Origin: Nanobdellati archaeon | GTDB taxonomy: Archaea > EX4484-52 > WAPT01 | Direction: 5' to 3' | DNA length: 28,974 bases | Assembly: GCA_015520605.1 (NCBI GenBank) | Contig: WAPT01000010.1 | Span: 1-28,974, forward strand | Shown: positions 791-19,601 of the stretch, one piece after another | Numbering within the stretch: position 1 is the stretch's first letter | How the letters are laid out: the number at the start of each line of letters is the position of its first letter | Made by a program: the position numbers and the translations under genes | Notes under the pieces: model-generated | What the model was told of the DNA's origin: nothing | Database searches by the model: none | What the model saw: only the letters and a program-made list of their open reading frames with translations

Positions 791-1093
791 CTAGTCTATT
801 CTTGTGATACGGTAAAGGTAAATTAGTGAAAATGCAAAACAACTCATCAAACACACAAACGCAAAACACTTCAGTATCGATAATTTGAGAAAAACACCCA
901 CAAATGAAAACATGGCATACAGTAACCCACCCAAACCAAAGCACATCAAAGCTATTCTACCGGTAAGAAATACTCTTGAAGCCGCTGCCACCGGATGACG
1001 ATGTATATTTTTTGATAAGAGAAGACTGAAAACTGTGCAAATCATTGCAAGTAAAAATCCTACCGCTCTCGTAAGGACAAAGATATCTACCAT
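791..1093 (-). CDS. Small membrane protein (~3 TM), module gene B, copy 1
   Basis: Three hydrophobic segments and an RVFL motif; aligns end to end with 18910..19206. Confidence 0.8.
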   Translation of the reverse strand: MVDIFVLTRAVGFLLAMICTVFSLLLSKNIHRHPVAAASRVFLTGRIALMCFGLGGLLYAMFSFVGVFLKLSILKCFAFVCLMSCFAFSLIYLYRITRID

Positions 1094-1383
1094 TTCGCGT
1101 ATCGCCTCGCTATTCTGATCGCGGCTATAAGGTACAGCAATGCACTTGAAATACCCGCTAGCATGTAAAATGAATTTTGGGGATCTTGGAGGATGACGCC
1201 AATCGCGGCATGAATAGTGGCAAGGACTGAGGCCAAAAATACCAACTTTATGTCGGTGAAAAGTTGAGAAGGCGAAACCAATGTTTTTATTATTGTCTCT
1301 TTTTTTATCGTTAACAGTTTCAGTGAATAATAGGAGCCTATGAGTGCCATTATACCCAAAGATAATTTGTAGATAAATTCCAT
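1087..1383 (-). CDS. Small membrane protein (~3 TM), module gene A, copy 1
   Basis: Three hydrophobic segments and a C-terminal RIARRYAKW. TATA-like TTTTTAAG (1407-1414, minus strand) lies 23 nt upstream. Paralog at 19210..19501. Confidence 0.8.
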   Translation of the reverse strand: MEFIYKLSLGIMALIGSYYSLKLLTIKKETIIKTLVSPSQLFTDIKLVFLASVLATIHAAIGVILQDPQNSFYMLAGISSALLYLIAAIRIARRYAKW

Positions 1384-1513
1384 GCTTGGATTATTGTGTT
1401 TATAATCTTAAAAAATTTTTTAAACGCGCTGAAACAGACATCACAGCATGTCAGAATTTGTTGAATGCAACATGTCCCCAACCAATTTAAATGTTACTGT
1501 CAGTAGTTTTCCC

Positions 1514-5835: not shown

Positions 5836-7617
5836 TTAGCTTGCAGGCTTTAGTATCTTGCCAAACTTCGATACCTTCAGAAGTGTGCTCACCACACCGA
5901 GAAAGTGCTGGGAGGCGGGCTTTGCTACGTATTTATTTGCGAAGTCCTTAGAGAAATGACCGTATGGTCCCTTAAACCTGTATGGAACAATATCTATTCC
6001 GAAAAACTGGAAGAACTCTCCGATAGAGTCAAAGCGCGACCGCAGCGGTATGTATTCTTTGAGGTTTACATATCTCATTTTATCGTTTCCCAGCTTCTCT
6101 TTGAGTTCCTTCACCGTGTAGGTCTGGAGGGGTGGTAACTCGATGTATGTACCACTGTTCTCAAATACGAACTTTCTGATGGCATTGTAATGCCCCTGAA
6201 GGATCTTCTGCTCCCCTTTCTCTTTCCTGTAAAACACCACCGGCCTGCCCGGGATCCTATGCTTTATTCCCAAAAACTCATCAACATATATCTCGTTTTC
6301 CTCCTTTATCGCCTCCAGCTCCAGCAACTTACAGAACATCACGTTCGAGCTCAGAACCCAGTTGGTTATGTTAAATGTGCCGTCCTCTATCTCGCTGCCG
6401 TTTGCAAGCCTTATGTTGACTTTATCAAGAGTCACCGGCATGAAAATATAAAAGTGGTAATACCTTCCTTCCCAGTTCATTTTAGATAATATGCCGCTTG
6501 CTTTTGTCTCCACCCACTCCTCGGTTATCCACGGGTGGTCAGCTATCAGACCGACATCGGGATGAAAGACCATGTGTTCCTTCGTCCAGCTGTTATATGG
6601 GTGAATCTCTCCCATCACCTTGGCCCTCAGCTCCCCGGGGGTGGGGAATTCCTCAAAGATGGGGTAGGCTTTCCAGAGCCATATATCGATTGAGATTATG
6701 GCAGTTGCGTGTCCTACCAGTCTGAAGAAAACGTGAGGCATGCTTTTCCTTGCCGAAGCGGAGCTGAGGGCATCGTTGATCATTTTGTATCTCAAGATTA
6801 TCGGCTTGGCTCTTTCCCTCCATTCCTCAAGAGTCCTCTCCCTGCTCCTAACCATAGTCCTTAGATGCTCAACTCTCGTCCTCACATTGCTTTCGAAAAT
6901 TCTCAGCCAGTCCTCGTAGGCCTTCCACTTGCTCCTGAGGACCTGCTTCTCCACCTCGGGTATGTGTGATAGCTTACCACCCTCCTCGAGATCCTTCAGA
7001 CCTTCCATAGTCATGAAATCTTGAGCTATGGTGGGCATTATCCCTCTGTTCCTCATAAAAGCCATCGATAGCCTTCCTGGACCTTCAGCGCCGCCACCCC
7101 CTGCATAATAATCCACCTGATCCACAAAAAAGCTCTTCAGAACAAGCTGAGCTTGCCTTGCTTTGTTAGGATCGTTGCTCCTCACATCTTCTATCCACTT
7201 CAGGAACTCCTCGTACCTCTCAAGGTCGGTTCTCACAAGCTCGAGATCCGATATGGAAGAACTTATTGCCATCAGAGTCTGCTTCAACTTCTGCTCCAGT
7301 GCTTCTTTCTGAGCCAAGGTTATCTGCCAGTACTGCTGGTGCTCCGGAGACACATCTATGCTCTCGCTGATCTTTTCTATTTTGAACTTGTCCTTGCCAA
7401 GCGCGAACGTCAAGCCAAGGTAACATTGAGTCACGTAGCCTGGGTAGCCCGTCACATCTATCGATATCTTCTGATTTCTGGGTGATTGAGCCCATGCCCT
7501 GCCGTACCACTTACCTTCCGTCCAGAAGAGAGGAGCCGGACCCATATCCCCAAAGTACGTCCTTATGTCCTTATCGTCCCTGTCATGCCCGATCTTAGAT
7601 ATAAGGGATTTTCCCAT
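5836..7617 (-). CDS. Conserved hypothetical protein, 593 aa, with coiled-coil segments
   Basis: Long ORF with its own BRE/TATA 23 nt upstream; no recognisable catalytic motif. Confidence 0.85.
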   Translation of the reverse strand: MGKSLISKIGHDRDDKDIRTYFGDMGPAPLFWTEGKWYGRAWAQSPRNQKISIDVTGYPGYVTQCYLGLTFALGKDKFKIEKISESIDVSPEHQQYWQITLAQKEALEQKLKQTLMAISSSISDLELVRTDLERYEEFLKWIEDVRSNDPNKARQAQLVLKSFFVDQVDYYAGGGGAEGPGRLSMAFMRNRGIMPTIAQDFMTMEGLKDLEEGGKLSHIPEVEKQVLRSKWKAYEDWLRIFESNVRTRVEHLRTMVRSRERTLEEWRERAKPIILRYKMINDALSSASARKSMPHVFFRLVGHATAIISIDIWLWKAYPIFEEFPTPGELRAKVMGEIHPYNSWTKEHMVFHPDVGLIADHPWITEEWVETKASGILSKMNWEGRYYHFYIFMPVTLDKVNIRLANGSEIEDGTFNITNWVLSSNVMFCKLLELEAIKEENEIYVDEFLGIKHRIPGRPVVFYRKEKGEQKILQGHYNAIRKFVFENSGTYIELPPLQTYTVKELKEKLGNDKMRYVNLKEYIPLRSRFDSIGEFFQFFGIDIVPYRFKGPYGHFSKDFANKYVAKPASQHFLGVVSTLLKVSKFGKILKPAS

Positions 7618-11024: not shown

Positions 11025-11413
11025 CGGCGTTTGTTTCTTTACACAATCTCAAATAGGAGGGAGAATTATAAACGCGGGCTTCAGATTTCTTCACACCCAA
11101 AGCTAAAGACTTTCCGATGGTACTTTATTTCTACACGATGATCGGCTTTAAATTCCATCTTAGCACCCACAAGCTTCTTCTTTTCCTCTTCGCTCAGTAT
11201 TTCAAGGTAATAAAGAGAATTGGCTTTGGTTAATACCTTTGCGAGACCACAAGAGAACTTATTGATTTTGTGAAGACACAATGAGATGGAATCTTAGGCA
11301 AACATTTGTTACGAGGCGGTTTCCTCACTCCTGACTAAGATTTAAAAAAATTACCCGTCCATTTAGTTTACGTCAAAAATTTCTTGCACGAGAACACTTT
11401 CTGGTGAGCGCAA

Positions 11414-11989
11414 ATGTATTTCATAAGCACAATTGAGGACAAGGTGCGGGTTCCTCCCGAATGGCTCAGCGGAAATAAGATAGAGGCCATAAAAAGGTCT
11501 CTGGCTAAAAAATACGAGAATAAAATCGTCCCTGAACTTGAGGGTGTTGTGCTTGCCATAATGGATATACTTAAAGTGGGGCAGGGAAGGTTGGTTGTTG
11601 AGGATCCAGGAGTGCACTACCCCGTTAAGTTCAAAGCGCTTGTGTTCAGACCCTTGCTTAATGAGGTTGTGGAAGGTCAGGTTGTGGACATAACGGAGTT
11701 CGGTGTCTTCGTGCGCTTTGGCCCAATCGATGCCCTCTGCCATATCTCGCAGGTTACGAACGATTACCTGAGTTATGATAGAAAGAATGTTATGCTTGTG
11801 GGAAGAGACACAAAGCGTGTACTTAAGGTAGGACATATAGTCAGGGCGAGGATCATCGGTGTGAGTATGAAGAAGAGTGAGCAGAACAAAATAATTTTGA
11901 CAATGAGGCAACCTGGATTGGGCGCGATAGAGTGGATAATTGCTGAGAGGGAGGAAAAGGCGAAGGCTGAGGGAAAAGGTAAGAAGTAG
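11414..11989 (+). CDS. rpoE1: RNA polymerase subunit E' (Rpo7)
   Basis: VRVPP, EVVEGQVVDITEFGVFVRFGPIDALCHISQV S1 domain and LTMRQPGLG. Confidence 0.96.
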   Translation: MYFISTIEDKVRVPPEWLSGNKIEAIKRSLAKKYENKIVPELEGVVLAIMDILKVGQGRLVVEDPGVHYPVKFKALVFRPLLNEVVEGQVVDITEFGVFVRFGPIDALCHISQVTNDYLSYDRKNVMLVGRDTKRVLKVGHIVRARIIGVSMKKSEQNKIILTMRQPGLGAIEWIIAEREEKAKAEGKGKK

Positions 11990-12040
11990 TCCTGTGTAGT
12001 AGCCACGACAGACCTTCAGCCAAGTTGAGGTGATGGAAGA

Positions 12041-12220
12041 ATGAAGGCCTGCAGGGAGTGCAAAAGGATAGTGGAGGAAGGAGACGAGTGTGTGGTCTGT
12101 GGGAGCAAGGATCTCACACGAAACTGGAAGGGCATAGTCATAATATGGGATGTTGAGAGCGAGATAGCTAAAAAGCTTGGTATAACTGCTCCGGGCAAAT
12201 ATGCTCTTCAAGTGTTTTAA
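12041..12220 (+). CDS. spt4: Transcription elongation factor Spt4 (RpoE''), 59 aa, absent from the ORF track
   Basis: MKACRECKRIVEEGDECVVCGSKDLTRNWKGIVIIWDVESEIAKKLGITAPGKYALQVF; SD GAGGTGA at 12027-12033; canonical position after rpoE'. Confidence 0.95.
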   Translation: MKACRECKRIVEEGDECVVCGSKDLTRNWKGIVIIWDVESEIAKKLGITAPGKYALQVF

Positions 12221-16366: not shown

Positions 16367-17291
16367 ATGTTTGGCGAGGACATTTTGGATCTCACCGACG
16401 AGCTGGAAATCATTACGGAGGGTAATATTGTTGTCTACTACTTAGATGTGCAGGAGAGTAACGATAACCTTGAACTCATCGAGACCGTCCTCAAAAGTTT
16501 GGGAATGGAATATTCCGGAGGGTCCACGTTCAACCTCAACTTCGAAAACGGAAGACAGTTATCGTCCTGAAGCGTTCTGGGTTGAAATAAGATCTCAGGA
16601 CTACTGCACGGATTTTTCTAATCCGCTTCTGTACGATGTGGTCGTGGGTGTTGGGGAGGAGGAAGGTGTAGACTCGCTGCGGGAAGTTACCTCAGTTTAT
16701 GTGGAGAGTCTTCTTTTCGGTGACGAATCACTTTCGACGTTTTATCTCATCCTTCCCAAAAATTACAAAAGCAGAGTCCAGAACGTTGATAAAGTATCTG
16801 TATATATCGTGGGGTCAAGAAGGTGTGACAAAGAACATGAATTAAAAATAGAAGATATTGATGTCTGCTGTCGTTTGGAGATCATCCCCGCAACGCCTCT
16901 GCCAAAGAATCTCGACATTTTGAGCAGAACTTTGGAGTTCCTTCTCTCAGAGCGCGGTGAAAAGTCTCCATTGGGTGGTCCCGAGTTCAAAAAGGGTGCG
17001 TTTGTTTCCGAGACGATCTACAAAGTTGCTGGGGAAAATGTACCAAAAAAGGTAAGAAAAGCGGAAAGTTATCGTGGTGTTGTGGATGAGAATTTCGCAT
17101 TCGGTTTTAAGCCGGAAGAAACGCGCAGGTACTTCATACCCGTCGAGGAACTGACCATGAAAACCCTTGAACACTATGCTCTCGGAAACAAATGTTACCT
17201 TTTAGAAACTGATACACCCAGAGTAATCTCGATCGATGGAGGCGGGAAATACGGGTGGAACATGTTGAGAGACATGGATATAAATTTTTAA
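16367..17291 (+). pseudogene. Acidic hypothetical protein (~300 aa) split by a probable frameshift near 16545-16548
   Basis: The ATG 16367 frame (MFGEDILDLTDELE...FNLNFE) and the second frame (TEDSYRPEAFWVE...) share composition and overlap at an A4 run. TATA-like TTTAAAAG about 25 nt upstream of 16367. Confidence 0.6.
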
Positions 17292-18277: not shown

Positions 18278-18913
18278 ATGAGCTACCGAACCTGGTTTCT
18301 GGAAAAATGGATCGGGGATGAGCTCGAGAAATTCCGGATGTACTGCCGTGCTGCAAGCAGTGATATCATTCTGGCCATCATAACGGAAGGTTGCGTTCCG
18401 AAAACCGCACTCATAACCAGTCCAACCAAACGCAGGTGCTTTGATGAGTTTGTGGATTTGCTGAGTACCGACATAATCAACATCATTTACGAAACTGAAA
18501 AATACGGCACATATAGGGTAAAACCCGTCAAACATGTCTATTACAGCGCCCACGATTTCGAAATAATGCTCCCGGAATTGCGCTTCGAAATAAACCGGCC
18601 ATTCGGAGAGTATCTGGTGGAGATTTACGGGTTGAGAGAAATGGATGATTTCCGGCTCCCTTCCGTGCCCTTCGAGGTGGAGGAGTTTGTGGAGAGCAAC
18701 AATGAGATGTGCGGTAATGCAGAGAGACGAGCGTGCTTTGGAATCTACCTTGAAACGCGCTTTCCCAAAGGGGTGAGGGTGGAATACGACGAGCAATATC
18801 TCGGGTATGAGCATGCGCCAGTGAGGAGCCATGTGATGGTGAGTCTGAAGAGGGATAAAGACTCCCCCTCAAAGATGAGAGTTGTAAGACCATTAAGGCA
18901 TGAGCAATGCTAA
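18278..18913 (+). CDS. Hypothetical protein (acidic, 211 aa)
   Basis: ORF with Glu-rich composition like the host genes; no recognisable motif. An in-frame TAG precedes it at 18272-18274, with in-frame ATGs at 18227 and 18242. Confidence 0.65.
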   Translation: MSYRTWFLEKWIGDELEKFRMYCRAASSDIILAIITEGCVPKTALITSPTKRRCFDEFVDLLSTDIINIIYETEKYGTYRVKPVKHVYYSAHDFEIMLPELRFEINRPFGEYLVEIYGLREMDDFRLPSVPFEVEEFVESNNEMCGNAERRACFGIYLETRFPKGVRVEYDEQYLGYEHAPVRSHVMVSLKRDKDSPSKMRVVRPLRHEQC

Positions 18914-19206
18914 AATTTTGTTGTTCTGTACCATGTGAAAAGTGCGAGAAAGAAAAAGAAAAATATCAGTGGTTCTGCCACATACTTTGCTATCTCTATT
19001 TTGAGAAAAAGCGAAATGAAAAAAAGAAGAGAATACGCAAGTCCTCCTGCAGCGAAATAGGAAAACGAGAGTTTTCCCTCCAAAAATACCCTGCAAATGC
19101 TCGCTCTCAGGTTTGCTTTAACATTTTTTAGCGTAAGGAGAGATAAAAGTAAGCAAAGGAGAGAAAATACGAAACCTAAAATTTTGGATATTATCACCGC
19201 ATCCAT
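18910..19206 (-). CDS. Small membrane protein (~3 TM), module gene B, copy 2
   Basis: Shares GF, SLL..KN, RVFL.G, F..GGL.Y, FLK..I.K and YR.T with 791..1093. Confidence 0.8.
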   Translation of the reverse strand: MDAVIISKILGFVFSLLCLLLSLLTLKNVKANLRASICRVFLEGKLSFSYFAAGGLAYSLLFFISLFLKIEIAKYVAEPLIFFFFFLALFTWYRTTKF

Positions 19207-19209
19207 ATT

Positions 19210-19501
19210 TTACCACTTCCTGTATCTTTTCGCAATCCTGAACGCTACGAATACATAAAGAAATCCACTCGAATACCCAAGAAAATTCACGAAAATTTCA
19301 GGAGTCGTTAAGAAAAATGAGAAGAAAAAGTATAAACTTCCAAAAAAGGATGCGAAAACCATTATTTTTAGATCATCTTCAAAATCTTTTGGATTGGCAA
19401 CTGTTTTTAAGAGAAATTCTTTTTTGAATAGAAAAATTTCAATGGAAAAATGCCCCTACGAAACCGAAAATACTCATGGGAATGATATACGTTATATCCA
19501 T
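19210..19501 (-). pseudogene. Small membrane protein, module gene A, copy 2, frameshifted and absent from the ORF track
   Basis: Reads MDITYIIPMSIFGFVGAF, then a frameshift at the T5 run (plus-strand A5 19446-19450), then SIEIFLFKKEFLLKTVANPKDFEDDLKIMVFAS...GYSSGFLYVFVAFRIAKRYRKW. Aligns with 1087..1383. TTTATATT 23 nt upstream. Confidence 0.8.
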
Positions 19502-19601
19502 ACTGAGACCTTAATTATCCACCTAATATAAATCTTTATGCCTATTGGGACGGAAACCGGGATGAATAAAGTTTTTAAATAAGTTTACTCATCCATCATT
19601 T

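Follow-up and report, generated by a model that had tools for sequence, protein, structure and literature searches.

The window analysed here, a stretch of 28,974 nucleotides that forms a whole contig of an archaeal assembly, carries two copies of a two-gene membrane module that is real, conserved and previously undescribed. The two genes, which we call A and B, each encode a small protein predicted to cross the membrane three times, and on the strength of their linkage and shared history the two products probably operate as one membrane complex. For the module as a whole, we lean towards a two-subunit membrane complex built from an undescribed pair of families and presenting a cytoplasmic docking or regulatory surface. 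The narrower proposal of a cytoplasmic scaffold role, read solely from where conservation falls, is tentative.

In the explanation we prefer, each pair would be a self-contained two-gene operon, A then B, with its own predicted promoter and coupled translation. A and B would be the two subunits, about 100 residues each, of a small hetero-oligomeric complex that is anchored in the membrane and exposes a cytoplasmic or interfacial surface for docking or regulation, rather than acting as a solute carrier. The family pair would be confined to a few related small-genome (DPANN-type) lineages, with up to seven diverged pairs per genome, single copies being gained, lost or broken between close relatives. 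We infer assembly of A with B from their obligate linkage over deep divergence, their co-duplication and one natural fusion.

Two A–B pairs in the window

The pairs lie about 18 kb apart among housekeeping genes (ABCE1, Hef, Hel308, Kae1, S24e, an Mrp/NBP35 ATPase and a DHH/RecJ-like protein); Rfam and tRNA scans detected no RNA genes in the window. Coordinates of both pairs and of the regions upstream of them are given in Table 1. BLASTP relates A1 to A2 (34% identity over 79 residues, E 8e-15) and B1 to B2 (33% over 97 residues, E 1e-12), which bears out a preliminary description of this DNA that had read the pairs as diverged paralogues in the same order and on the same strand. All of the A and B motifs listed there were found in both copies. 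It had also placed the second A gene at 19210..19501; this is indeed a paralogue of A1, but the interval is 292 nt long, not a multiple of three, and its reading frame is broken.

Table 1. Genes and upstream regions of the two A–B pairs, in window coordinates
Feature	Position	Strand	Description
Gene A1	1087..1383	−	98 aa, intact ORF; three predicted membrane helices; motifs KKETIIKTLVSP...DIK in loop 1 and RIARRYAKW in the C-tail
Gene B1	791..1093	−	100 aa, intact ORF; three predicted membrane helices; B profile 119 bits
Gene A2	19210..19501	−	Interrupted in the window assembly; poly-T run 19446-19450 short by 2 nt
Gene B2	18910..19206	−	98 aa, intact; B profile 108.5 bits
Pair-1 promoter-like region	1384..1425	−	A/T-rich; TATA-like box ~22 nt upstream of the A1 ATG; read from sequence
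Pair-2 upstream region	19502..19561	−	TATA-like box

Spacing within the pairs is tight. In pair 1 the A1 stop and the B1 start overlap by 7 nt; in pair 2, 3 nt separate the A2 stop from the B2 start. The proposal that each pair sits behind its own TATA box also held, with TATA-like boxes beginning ~22-31 nt 5' of both A start codons. A six-frame search of the whole assembly (863 kb, 27 contigs) recovered two A and two B genes, those of the window only, so that the genome-wide count comes to exactly two pairs.

The frame of B1 is open through the entire A1 gene (199 codons without a stop, 1094-1390 on the minus strand). Such a stop-free B1 frame arose in 317 of 20000 codon-order shuffles of A1, and the product of the extended alternative frame is not membrane-protein-like. 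Elsewhere in the window, Pfam gave no match (E up to 1e-3) for three sizeable ORFs, at 5836-7617 (−, 593 aa), 11363-12211 (−, 282 aa) and 16446-17291 (+, 281 aa).

Linkage and descent of the pair across lineages

Word-indexed profile searches of 5.8 billion proteins returned four proteins for A and five for B, and a HMMER search of 1.84 billion representatives with the B profile returned 15 at E up to 1e-3, eight of them at 1e-10 or below. Two of the 15 carry the submitter label 'Candidatus Aenigmarchaeota archaeon', and no annotation exists for the family pair, the few source names read being 'hypothetical protein'. Within the window's phylum (42 genomes, one order) the pair occurs in three genomes only, which are all three of the window's genus: the window's own assembly and two congeners, G001 and G002. 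Sampling 401 archaeal genomes brought in two more with B, both from another phylum (G126 and G319), together with two false or weak matches. Candidates rejected in the course of these searches were a match inside a SecD/F gene (G385), one with stops inside (G022, E 4.7e-4), a weak high-GC match (G412) and a non-membrane ORF of 65 aa (contig C26).

This second phylum comprises 70 genomes of 0.5-1.7 Mb, and its proteins are strongly acidic in the loci examined. An enlarged B profile (E up to 1e-4) gave 49 matches there, spread over 16 of the 70 genomes and 9 of the 32 genera. Copy number reaches seven B genes in G126 and G432, six in G431 and G434 and five in G416, and is one in each of the four genomes of genus g202. 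Some archaea with tiny genomes, which keep few genes, spend up to 14 of them on the module; this argues for a role that matters to the biology of their membranes or to their life in symbiosis.

The preliminary description left open whether A and B are usually unlinked elsewhere. They are directly adjacent in all four pairs of the window's genus, where A stop and B start are −7, +3, +3 and +4 nt apart, and in 26 of the 30 second-phylum loci retrieved, where B is immediately preceded by an A-like ORF in the same orientation (gap −25 to +34 nt). Four of these 26 loci formed the training set of the A-like profile. The A-like ORFs have three helices, score 42-141 bits on that profile and are 103-125 residues long, one having been called at 254 residues because the ORF rule chose a far upstream start. 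The four loci that gave no A-like ORF are a B gene at a contig start, a weak high-GC match that is probably false, and loci L048 and L068, in one of which B itself carries an in-frame TAG and the ORF rule detected no A. If the family is delimited by a B-profile match with a three-helix A directly upstream, it takes in both window pairs, the pairs of G001 and G002, and the same 26 of 30 loci; the two profiles combined with this positional rule would allow such genes to be annotated. The B genes of L048 (G376) and L050 (G407), which belong to one genus, each contain one in-frame TAG that could mark a pseudogene, a sequencing error or recoding.

No third partner emerged. KaiC-like ATPases had been named as possible neighbours, but no KaiC-like gene adjoins either window pair and neither it nor any other third gene is linked consistently; when neighbouring ORFs were clustered across the 30 second-phylum loci, only A and B recurred. 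The next commonest neighbour, at 6 of the 30, is an endonuclease IV-type (AP_endonuc_2) gene. It lies just downstream of the A–B pair at L069, L046, L047 and three other second-phylum loci, and is found again ~700 nt downstream of the G001 pair (L027 7063-7938). This arrangement may be a remnant of an ancestral position.

Sequence kinship between the two phyla can be traced for both proteins, though weakly for A. Cross-phylum matches to the B profile score 23-32 bits, and the window A profile aligns with that of the second-phylum A-like proteins at E 1.3e-3 (hhalign, probability 18%), collinear over 76 columns. Profiles built from the second phylum only were run on 6817 ORFs of the window's assembly: the A profile ranked A1 first (E 0.023) and A2 seventh, and the B profile ranked B2 second and B1 third. 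The top A candidate immediately precedes one of the three top B candidates, which chance would hardly produce. A five-sequence A-like profile retrieved nothing from the window's assembly, G001 or G002. The C-termini read R-W-W-R-R-F in second-phylum A-like proteins, and RIARRYAKW and RIAKRYRKW in the window's A proteins. The two groups of A proteins are probably related, though the similarity is weak.

A maximum-likelihood tree of 44 B proteins sets 17 window-type sequences apart from 27 of the second phylum (support 97/93), and within the window type the rRNA-linked genes, B1 and B2 form distinct clades. This separation indicates that the pair multiplied separately in each lineage. Across six linked pairs the identity matrix of A tracks that of B (Pearson 0.94, Spearman 0.68), consistent with duplication of the unit as a whole, as had been proposed. 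The window's lineage saw at least two such joint duplications, and the second phylum many. The proposed date of 'long ago' holds in a relative sense only: the duplication stands, but the B1/B2 split is younger than the splits from the rRNA-linked type and from the second phylum, and lies within the window's own lineage.

The 15 B relatives include one natural A–B fusion, a protein of 187 aa (P0014) on a single 5.5-kb contig. Its residues 5-99 align with residues 2-96 of A1 (38%, E 3e-18) and its residues 90-186 with residues 2-98 of B1 (34%, E 2e-17). The fusion lacks the basic tail of A and, taken as a six-helix chain, has Lys/Arg divided 10 to 10 between its two faces. Because such a split fits badly with two halves that are both N-out/C-in, P0014 may be a defective deletion product.

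These data bear on another account, that A and B are two independent small membrane proteins sharing an operon without contact. The profiles of A and B are dissimilar (hhalign probability 1%), as this account would have it, and for the same reason we rejected the idea that A and B are ancient paralogues of each other. Independence nevertheless seems very improbable given that order and tight spacing are kept across lineages at 15-30% protein identity, that the genes were repeatedly duplicated together and that a fusion exists.

A clade of Nanohaloarchaeota, EX4484-52 and Aenigmatarchaeota is proposed in the preprint 10.1101/2025.08.05.668663. The A–B pair, found in the window's phylum, the acidic-proteome phylum and two 'Aenigmarchaeota'-labelled proteins, would match this clade if our phylum guesses are right, and would then be a shared derived character.

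Protein architecture and comparison with known systems

Going by AF2 models and hydropathy, each protein has three hydrophobic helices, the 3+3 architecture that had been proposed. The A1 model (pLDDT 83.7, pTM 0.70; helices 2-24, 28-36, 38-65 and 71-97) consists of three long helices and a short extra one at residues 28-36, and the B1 model (pLDDT 76.7, pTM 0.51) has helices at 2-30, 34-69 and 72-98. In 20 of the 21 separate A and B proteins analysed, Lys/Arg residues gather in loop 1 plus the C-tail, which predicts an external N-terminus and a cytoplasmic C-terminus for both. The hydropathy and charge count behind this topology is crude and found only two of the three cores in five sequences; A1 is among those with only two cores detected, so its own charge count is uninformative.

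Conservation was assessed on two alignments, one of 33 A and one of 44 B sequences. Columns conserved in at least 70% of sequences sit, in both proteins, at the C-termini and in loop 1, which is cytoplasmic by the predicted topology. A has a conserved Leu and Phe within its loop-1 motif (consensus E-T-A-M-x-x-x-x-L-x-P...D-F-K) and an R-W-x-R-R tail, part of a basic-aromatic C-tail pattern R-[IW]-[AW]-R-R-[YF]; B has two conserved Phe that follow an N-x-x-K-x-P segment and, close to its C-terminus, a Thr. No conserved charged column falls within the membrane segments of these 33 A and 44 B sequences. Glycine-rich motifs occur in helix 2 of B (GxGG) and helix 3 of A (Gx5LY). Conservation in loop 1 and the C-tails, rather than in the membrane cores, leads us to prefer a membrane-anchored docking surface over a carrier, the weakest step of the argument.

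The preliminary description had favoured a split transporter, channel or receptor. For a split solute transporter or ion channel, A and B would form a six-helix bundle or higher oligomer that conducts an ion or small molecule, in the manner of three-helix protomers (SemiSWEET dimers, MPC1/MPC2) or of small pentameric channels. The 3+3 helices and obligate pairing suit such a device, and the two glycine motifs would permit the tight helix packing it calls for, but the membrane segments hold no conserved charged or polar residue. In structural comparison, the small channel protein WeiTsing (8hf2_A) aligns over near full length with A (Z 8.8, rmsd 2.9, 91 aligned) and B (Z 10.1, rmsd 3.2, 96 aligned), and SemiSWEET (4qnd_A) aligns with A (Z 6.4, rmsd 5.0, 75 aligned); all of these values are below the Z of ~13 up to which the search tool returns noise for helical bundles. 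Up to seven diverged pairs in a genome of ~1 Mb are unusual for one transport function. We consider a transporter or ion-coupled channel unlikely, as what is conserved is the cytoplasmic loop 1 and the C-tails and not an intramembrane charge.

The statement that the pair belongs to no described family stood up to every search. Pfam gave nothing above threshold, and MtN3/PQ-loop, MPC, SMR and CrcB went unmatched both with the four proteins of the window (at E up to 10) and with ten from the second phylum (at E up to 1). For A and B nothing rose above NCBIfam thresholds, PHROGs gave no match below E 0.03, profile searches of PDB sequences gave no credible match, and PADLOC-DB, scanned with 12 proteins, gave a single match at E 0.0097 (14 bits). 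A TspO_MBR score of 20.1 bits for one B-like protein, against a cut-off of 24 and with the others lower still, was treated as noise. By fold, the best hits were at E 1.3 for A against the PDB (Foldseek) and E 0.89 for B against BFVD viral structures, and a search of structural representatives peaked at Z 10.4 (A) and 10.5 (B), with unrelated helical proteins. The nearest ESM Atlas clusters (0.90 for A, 0.87 for B) are unnamed archaeal hypothetical proteins and serve as leads only.

The nearest named ESM Atlas cluster, Phage_holin_2 at 0.80, is at chance level; a phage holin was rejected on this ground, on the PHROGs result and because searches turned up no relatives in viral contigs or phage records. 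Single-protein scans of metagenome, genome and viral contigs detected no relatives, save one genome scan that found G001 again, and a word search gave no A2 orthologues. A full-text literature search yielded no such family, which is no proof of absence.

Several known systems resemble the pair in part. Paired SMR proteins of the EbrAB/YkkCD type are encoded by adjacent, coupled genes, have ~100-120 residues and work only as heterodimers. A and B are likewise small polytopic membrane proteins from adjacent, translationally coupled genes that have duplicated repeatedly. SMR proteins have four helices, however, and a conserved membrane-embedded acidic residue (Glu) in helix 1, whereas A and B have three helices, no conserved intramembrane charge and no match to PF00893. 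SemiSWEET dimers and MPC1/MPC2 consist of three-helix protomers of ~100 residues, the size and helix number of A and B, that pair to six helices, and MPC is a heterodimer of two paralogous small proteins. Unlike these, A and B match no MtN3_slv, PQ-loop or MPC profile, and unlike MPC1 and MPC2 they are not detectably related to each other; the SemiSWEET alignment with the A model is within helical-bundle noise.

WeiTsing, a small plant membrane protein solved by cryo-EM and described as an oligomeric cation channel, is the only small membrane protein to align over nearly the whole length of both models (12% identity). Its Z values are in the range of unrelated bundles, it has no sequence relation to A or B and it comes from another domain of life.

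Get1/Get2 and EMC3/EMC6, of the Oxa1 superfamily, are 3+3-helix heteromers with basic cytoplasmic elements between helices 1 and 2. A and B share the 3+3 helices and the basic loop 1, and in G001 and G002 the pair stands beside the gene of the tail-anchored Sec61-beta. In contrast to the Oxa1 superfamily, A and B have no match to PF01956, which matches one other locus per genome (DUF106/EMC3-type), and the A–B pair is multicopy, unlike a housekeeping insertase. Searches for full-length ArsA/Get3 in these genomes returned P-loop matches only, at profile positions 1-49. The idea of an insertase receptor was rejected, since the genomes have their own DUF106-type gene and full-length Get3 is absent.

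Copy turnover and the A2 frameshift

Neither pair 1 nor pair 2 has a counterpart at the same site in G001 or G002. In G002 the corresponding site lacks a segment of ~650 nt (about 18905-19561, spanning A2, B2 and the upstream region), and its homology with the window picks up again at 19562. There, the homologue of the orphan gene at 18278-18913 reaches the promoter of the MBL-fold (metallo-beta-lactamase-fold) gene with 32 nt between. Sequencing run X3, in which A2 is intact, also contains an 'empty' junction without pair 2. The difference reflects either an insertion in the window's lineage or a deletion in the others. The KH-domain gene that faces pair 1 adjoins RNase P protein genes in G001 instead.

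G001 and G002 each have one A–B pair of their own, with gaps of 3 and 4 nt and its own TATA-like box, flanked by the RNase P RNA gene on one side and the 23S rRNA gene (3' end) on the other. The pair has the same orientation as these two RNA genes, and Sec61-beta and tRNA genes follow (L027 5553-6723; L021). The interval is an odd site for protein genes. No RNase P RNA was found in the window's assembly; a third pair, linked to rRNA, may therefore exist in the genome but not in the assembly. Between G001 and G002 the positional orthologues share only 37% (A) and 31% (B) identity, whereas the MBL-fold protein that neighbours pair 2 in the window is 75% identical to its counterpart in G001 and 89% to that in G002; hence the A–B pair evolves fast.

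Read from its ATG at 19501, A2 runs for 20 codons to a stop; from ~19446 onwards the conserved part continues in a different frame. The poly-T run is T5 in the window. A relative that is ~94% identical over the stretch, known from a 1995-nt contig of another study, has T7 there, and its A2 is a single uninterrupted gene of 97 codons (97 residues); a contig of the probable source run has T5, as in the window. Among the 40 of 62 differences listed between window and relative, A2 in corrected frames has 11 synonymous and 5 non-synonymous, which indicates purifying selection on A2, and B2 has 4 synonymous and 8 non-synonymous, which points to little constraint on B2. A2 was therefore functional until recently, and in the window it is broken or switched off in the homopolymer. 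The frameshift could represent slipped-strand switching rather than plain decay.

Turnover of this kind raises the possibility of a conflict or selfish module in which a membrane toxin is paired with a protein that neutralises it, as in systems of addiction, immunity or abortive infection. A module that persists on its own account would explain the multiplicity, fast divergence and turnover of the pairs, and two small coupled genes under their own promoter, present in many diverged copies per genome, have the right form. The low identity of the G001 and G002 orthologues relative to the MBL-fold protein, presence or absence at the same site between congeners next to a gene 89% identical, and an A2 broken in a homopolymer run beside an intact B2 are all in keeping with it. 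In two congeners, however, the pair keeps a stable place between the genes for 23S rRNA and RNase P RNA, and all four genomes of genus g202 keep one copy. Low G+C (0.31-0.37 in the pairs, ~0.45 in their surroundings) also speaks for such a module, but is to be expected of membrane proteins rich in Phe, Ile, Leu and Lys. Pair 1 and pair 2 share no flanking repeats or cassette sites, only short chance-like matches, and PADLOC and PHROGs matches as well as viral relatives, by fold or sequence, are lacking. We judge a conflict module improbable.

An elaboration of the docking-surface complex can be offered as a long shot. The pair would represent a new kind of small membrane complex dating back to the common ancestor of one sub-clade within DPANN (probably Nanohaloarchaeota, EX4484-52 and Aenigmatarchaeota). 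It would have diversified into as many as seven variants per cell that differ in specificity, each using its cytoplasmic loop and Arg/Trp-rich tail to recruit or gate a different partner, for example in traffic with a host, and homopolymer slippage would switch pairs off and on. Nanohaloarchaeota can be co-cultured with their hosts, which would make the expression and localisation of the pairs testable.

The orphan gene beside pair 2 (18278-18913, plus strand) encodes 211 aa with no Pfam match, and its G002 homologue encodes 240 aa, about 30 codons more. A G>T change at 18902 in the run-X3 relative creates a stop that shortens the gene by three codons. Variation at the gene's 3' end falls exactly where pair 2 abuts it.
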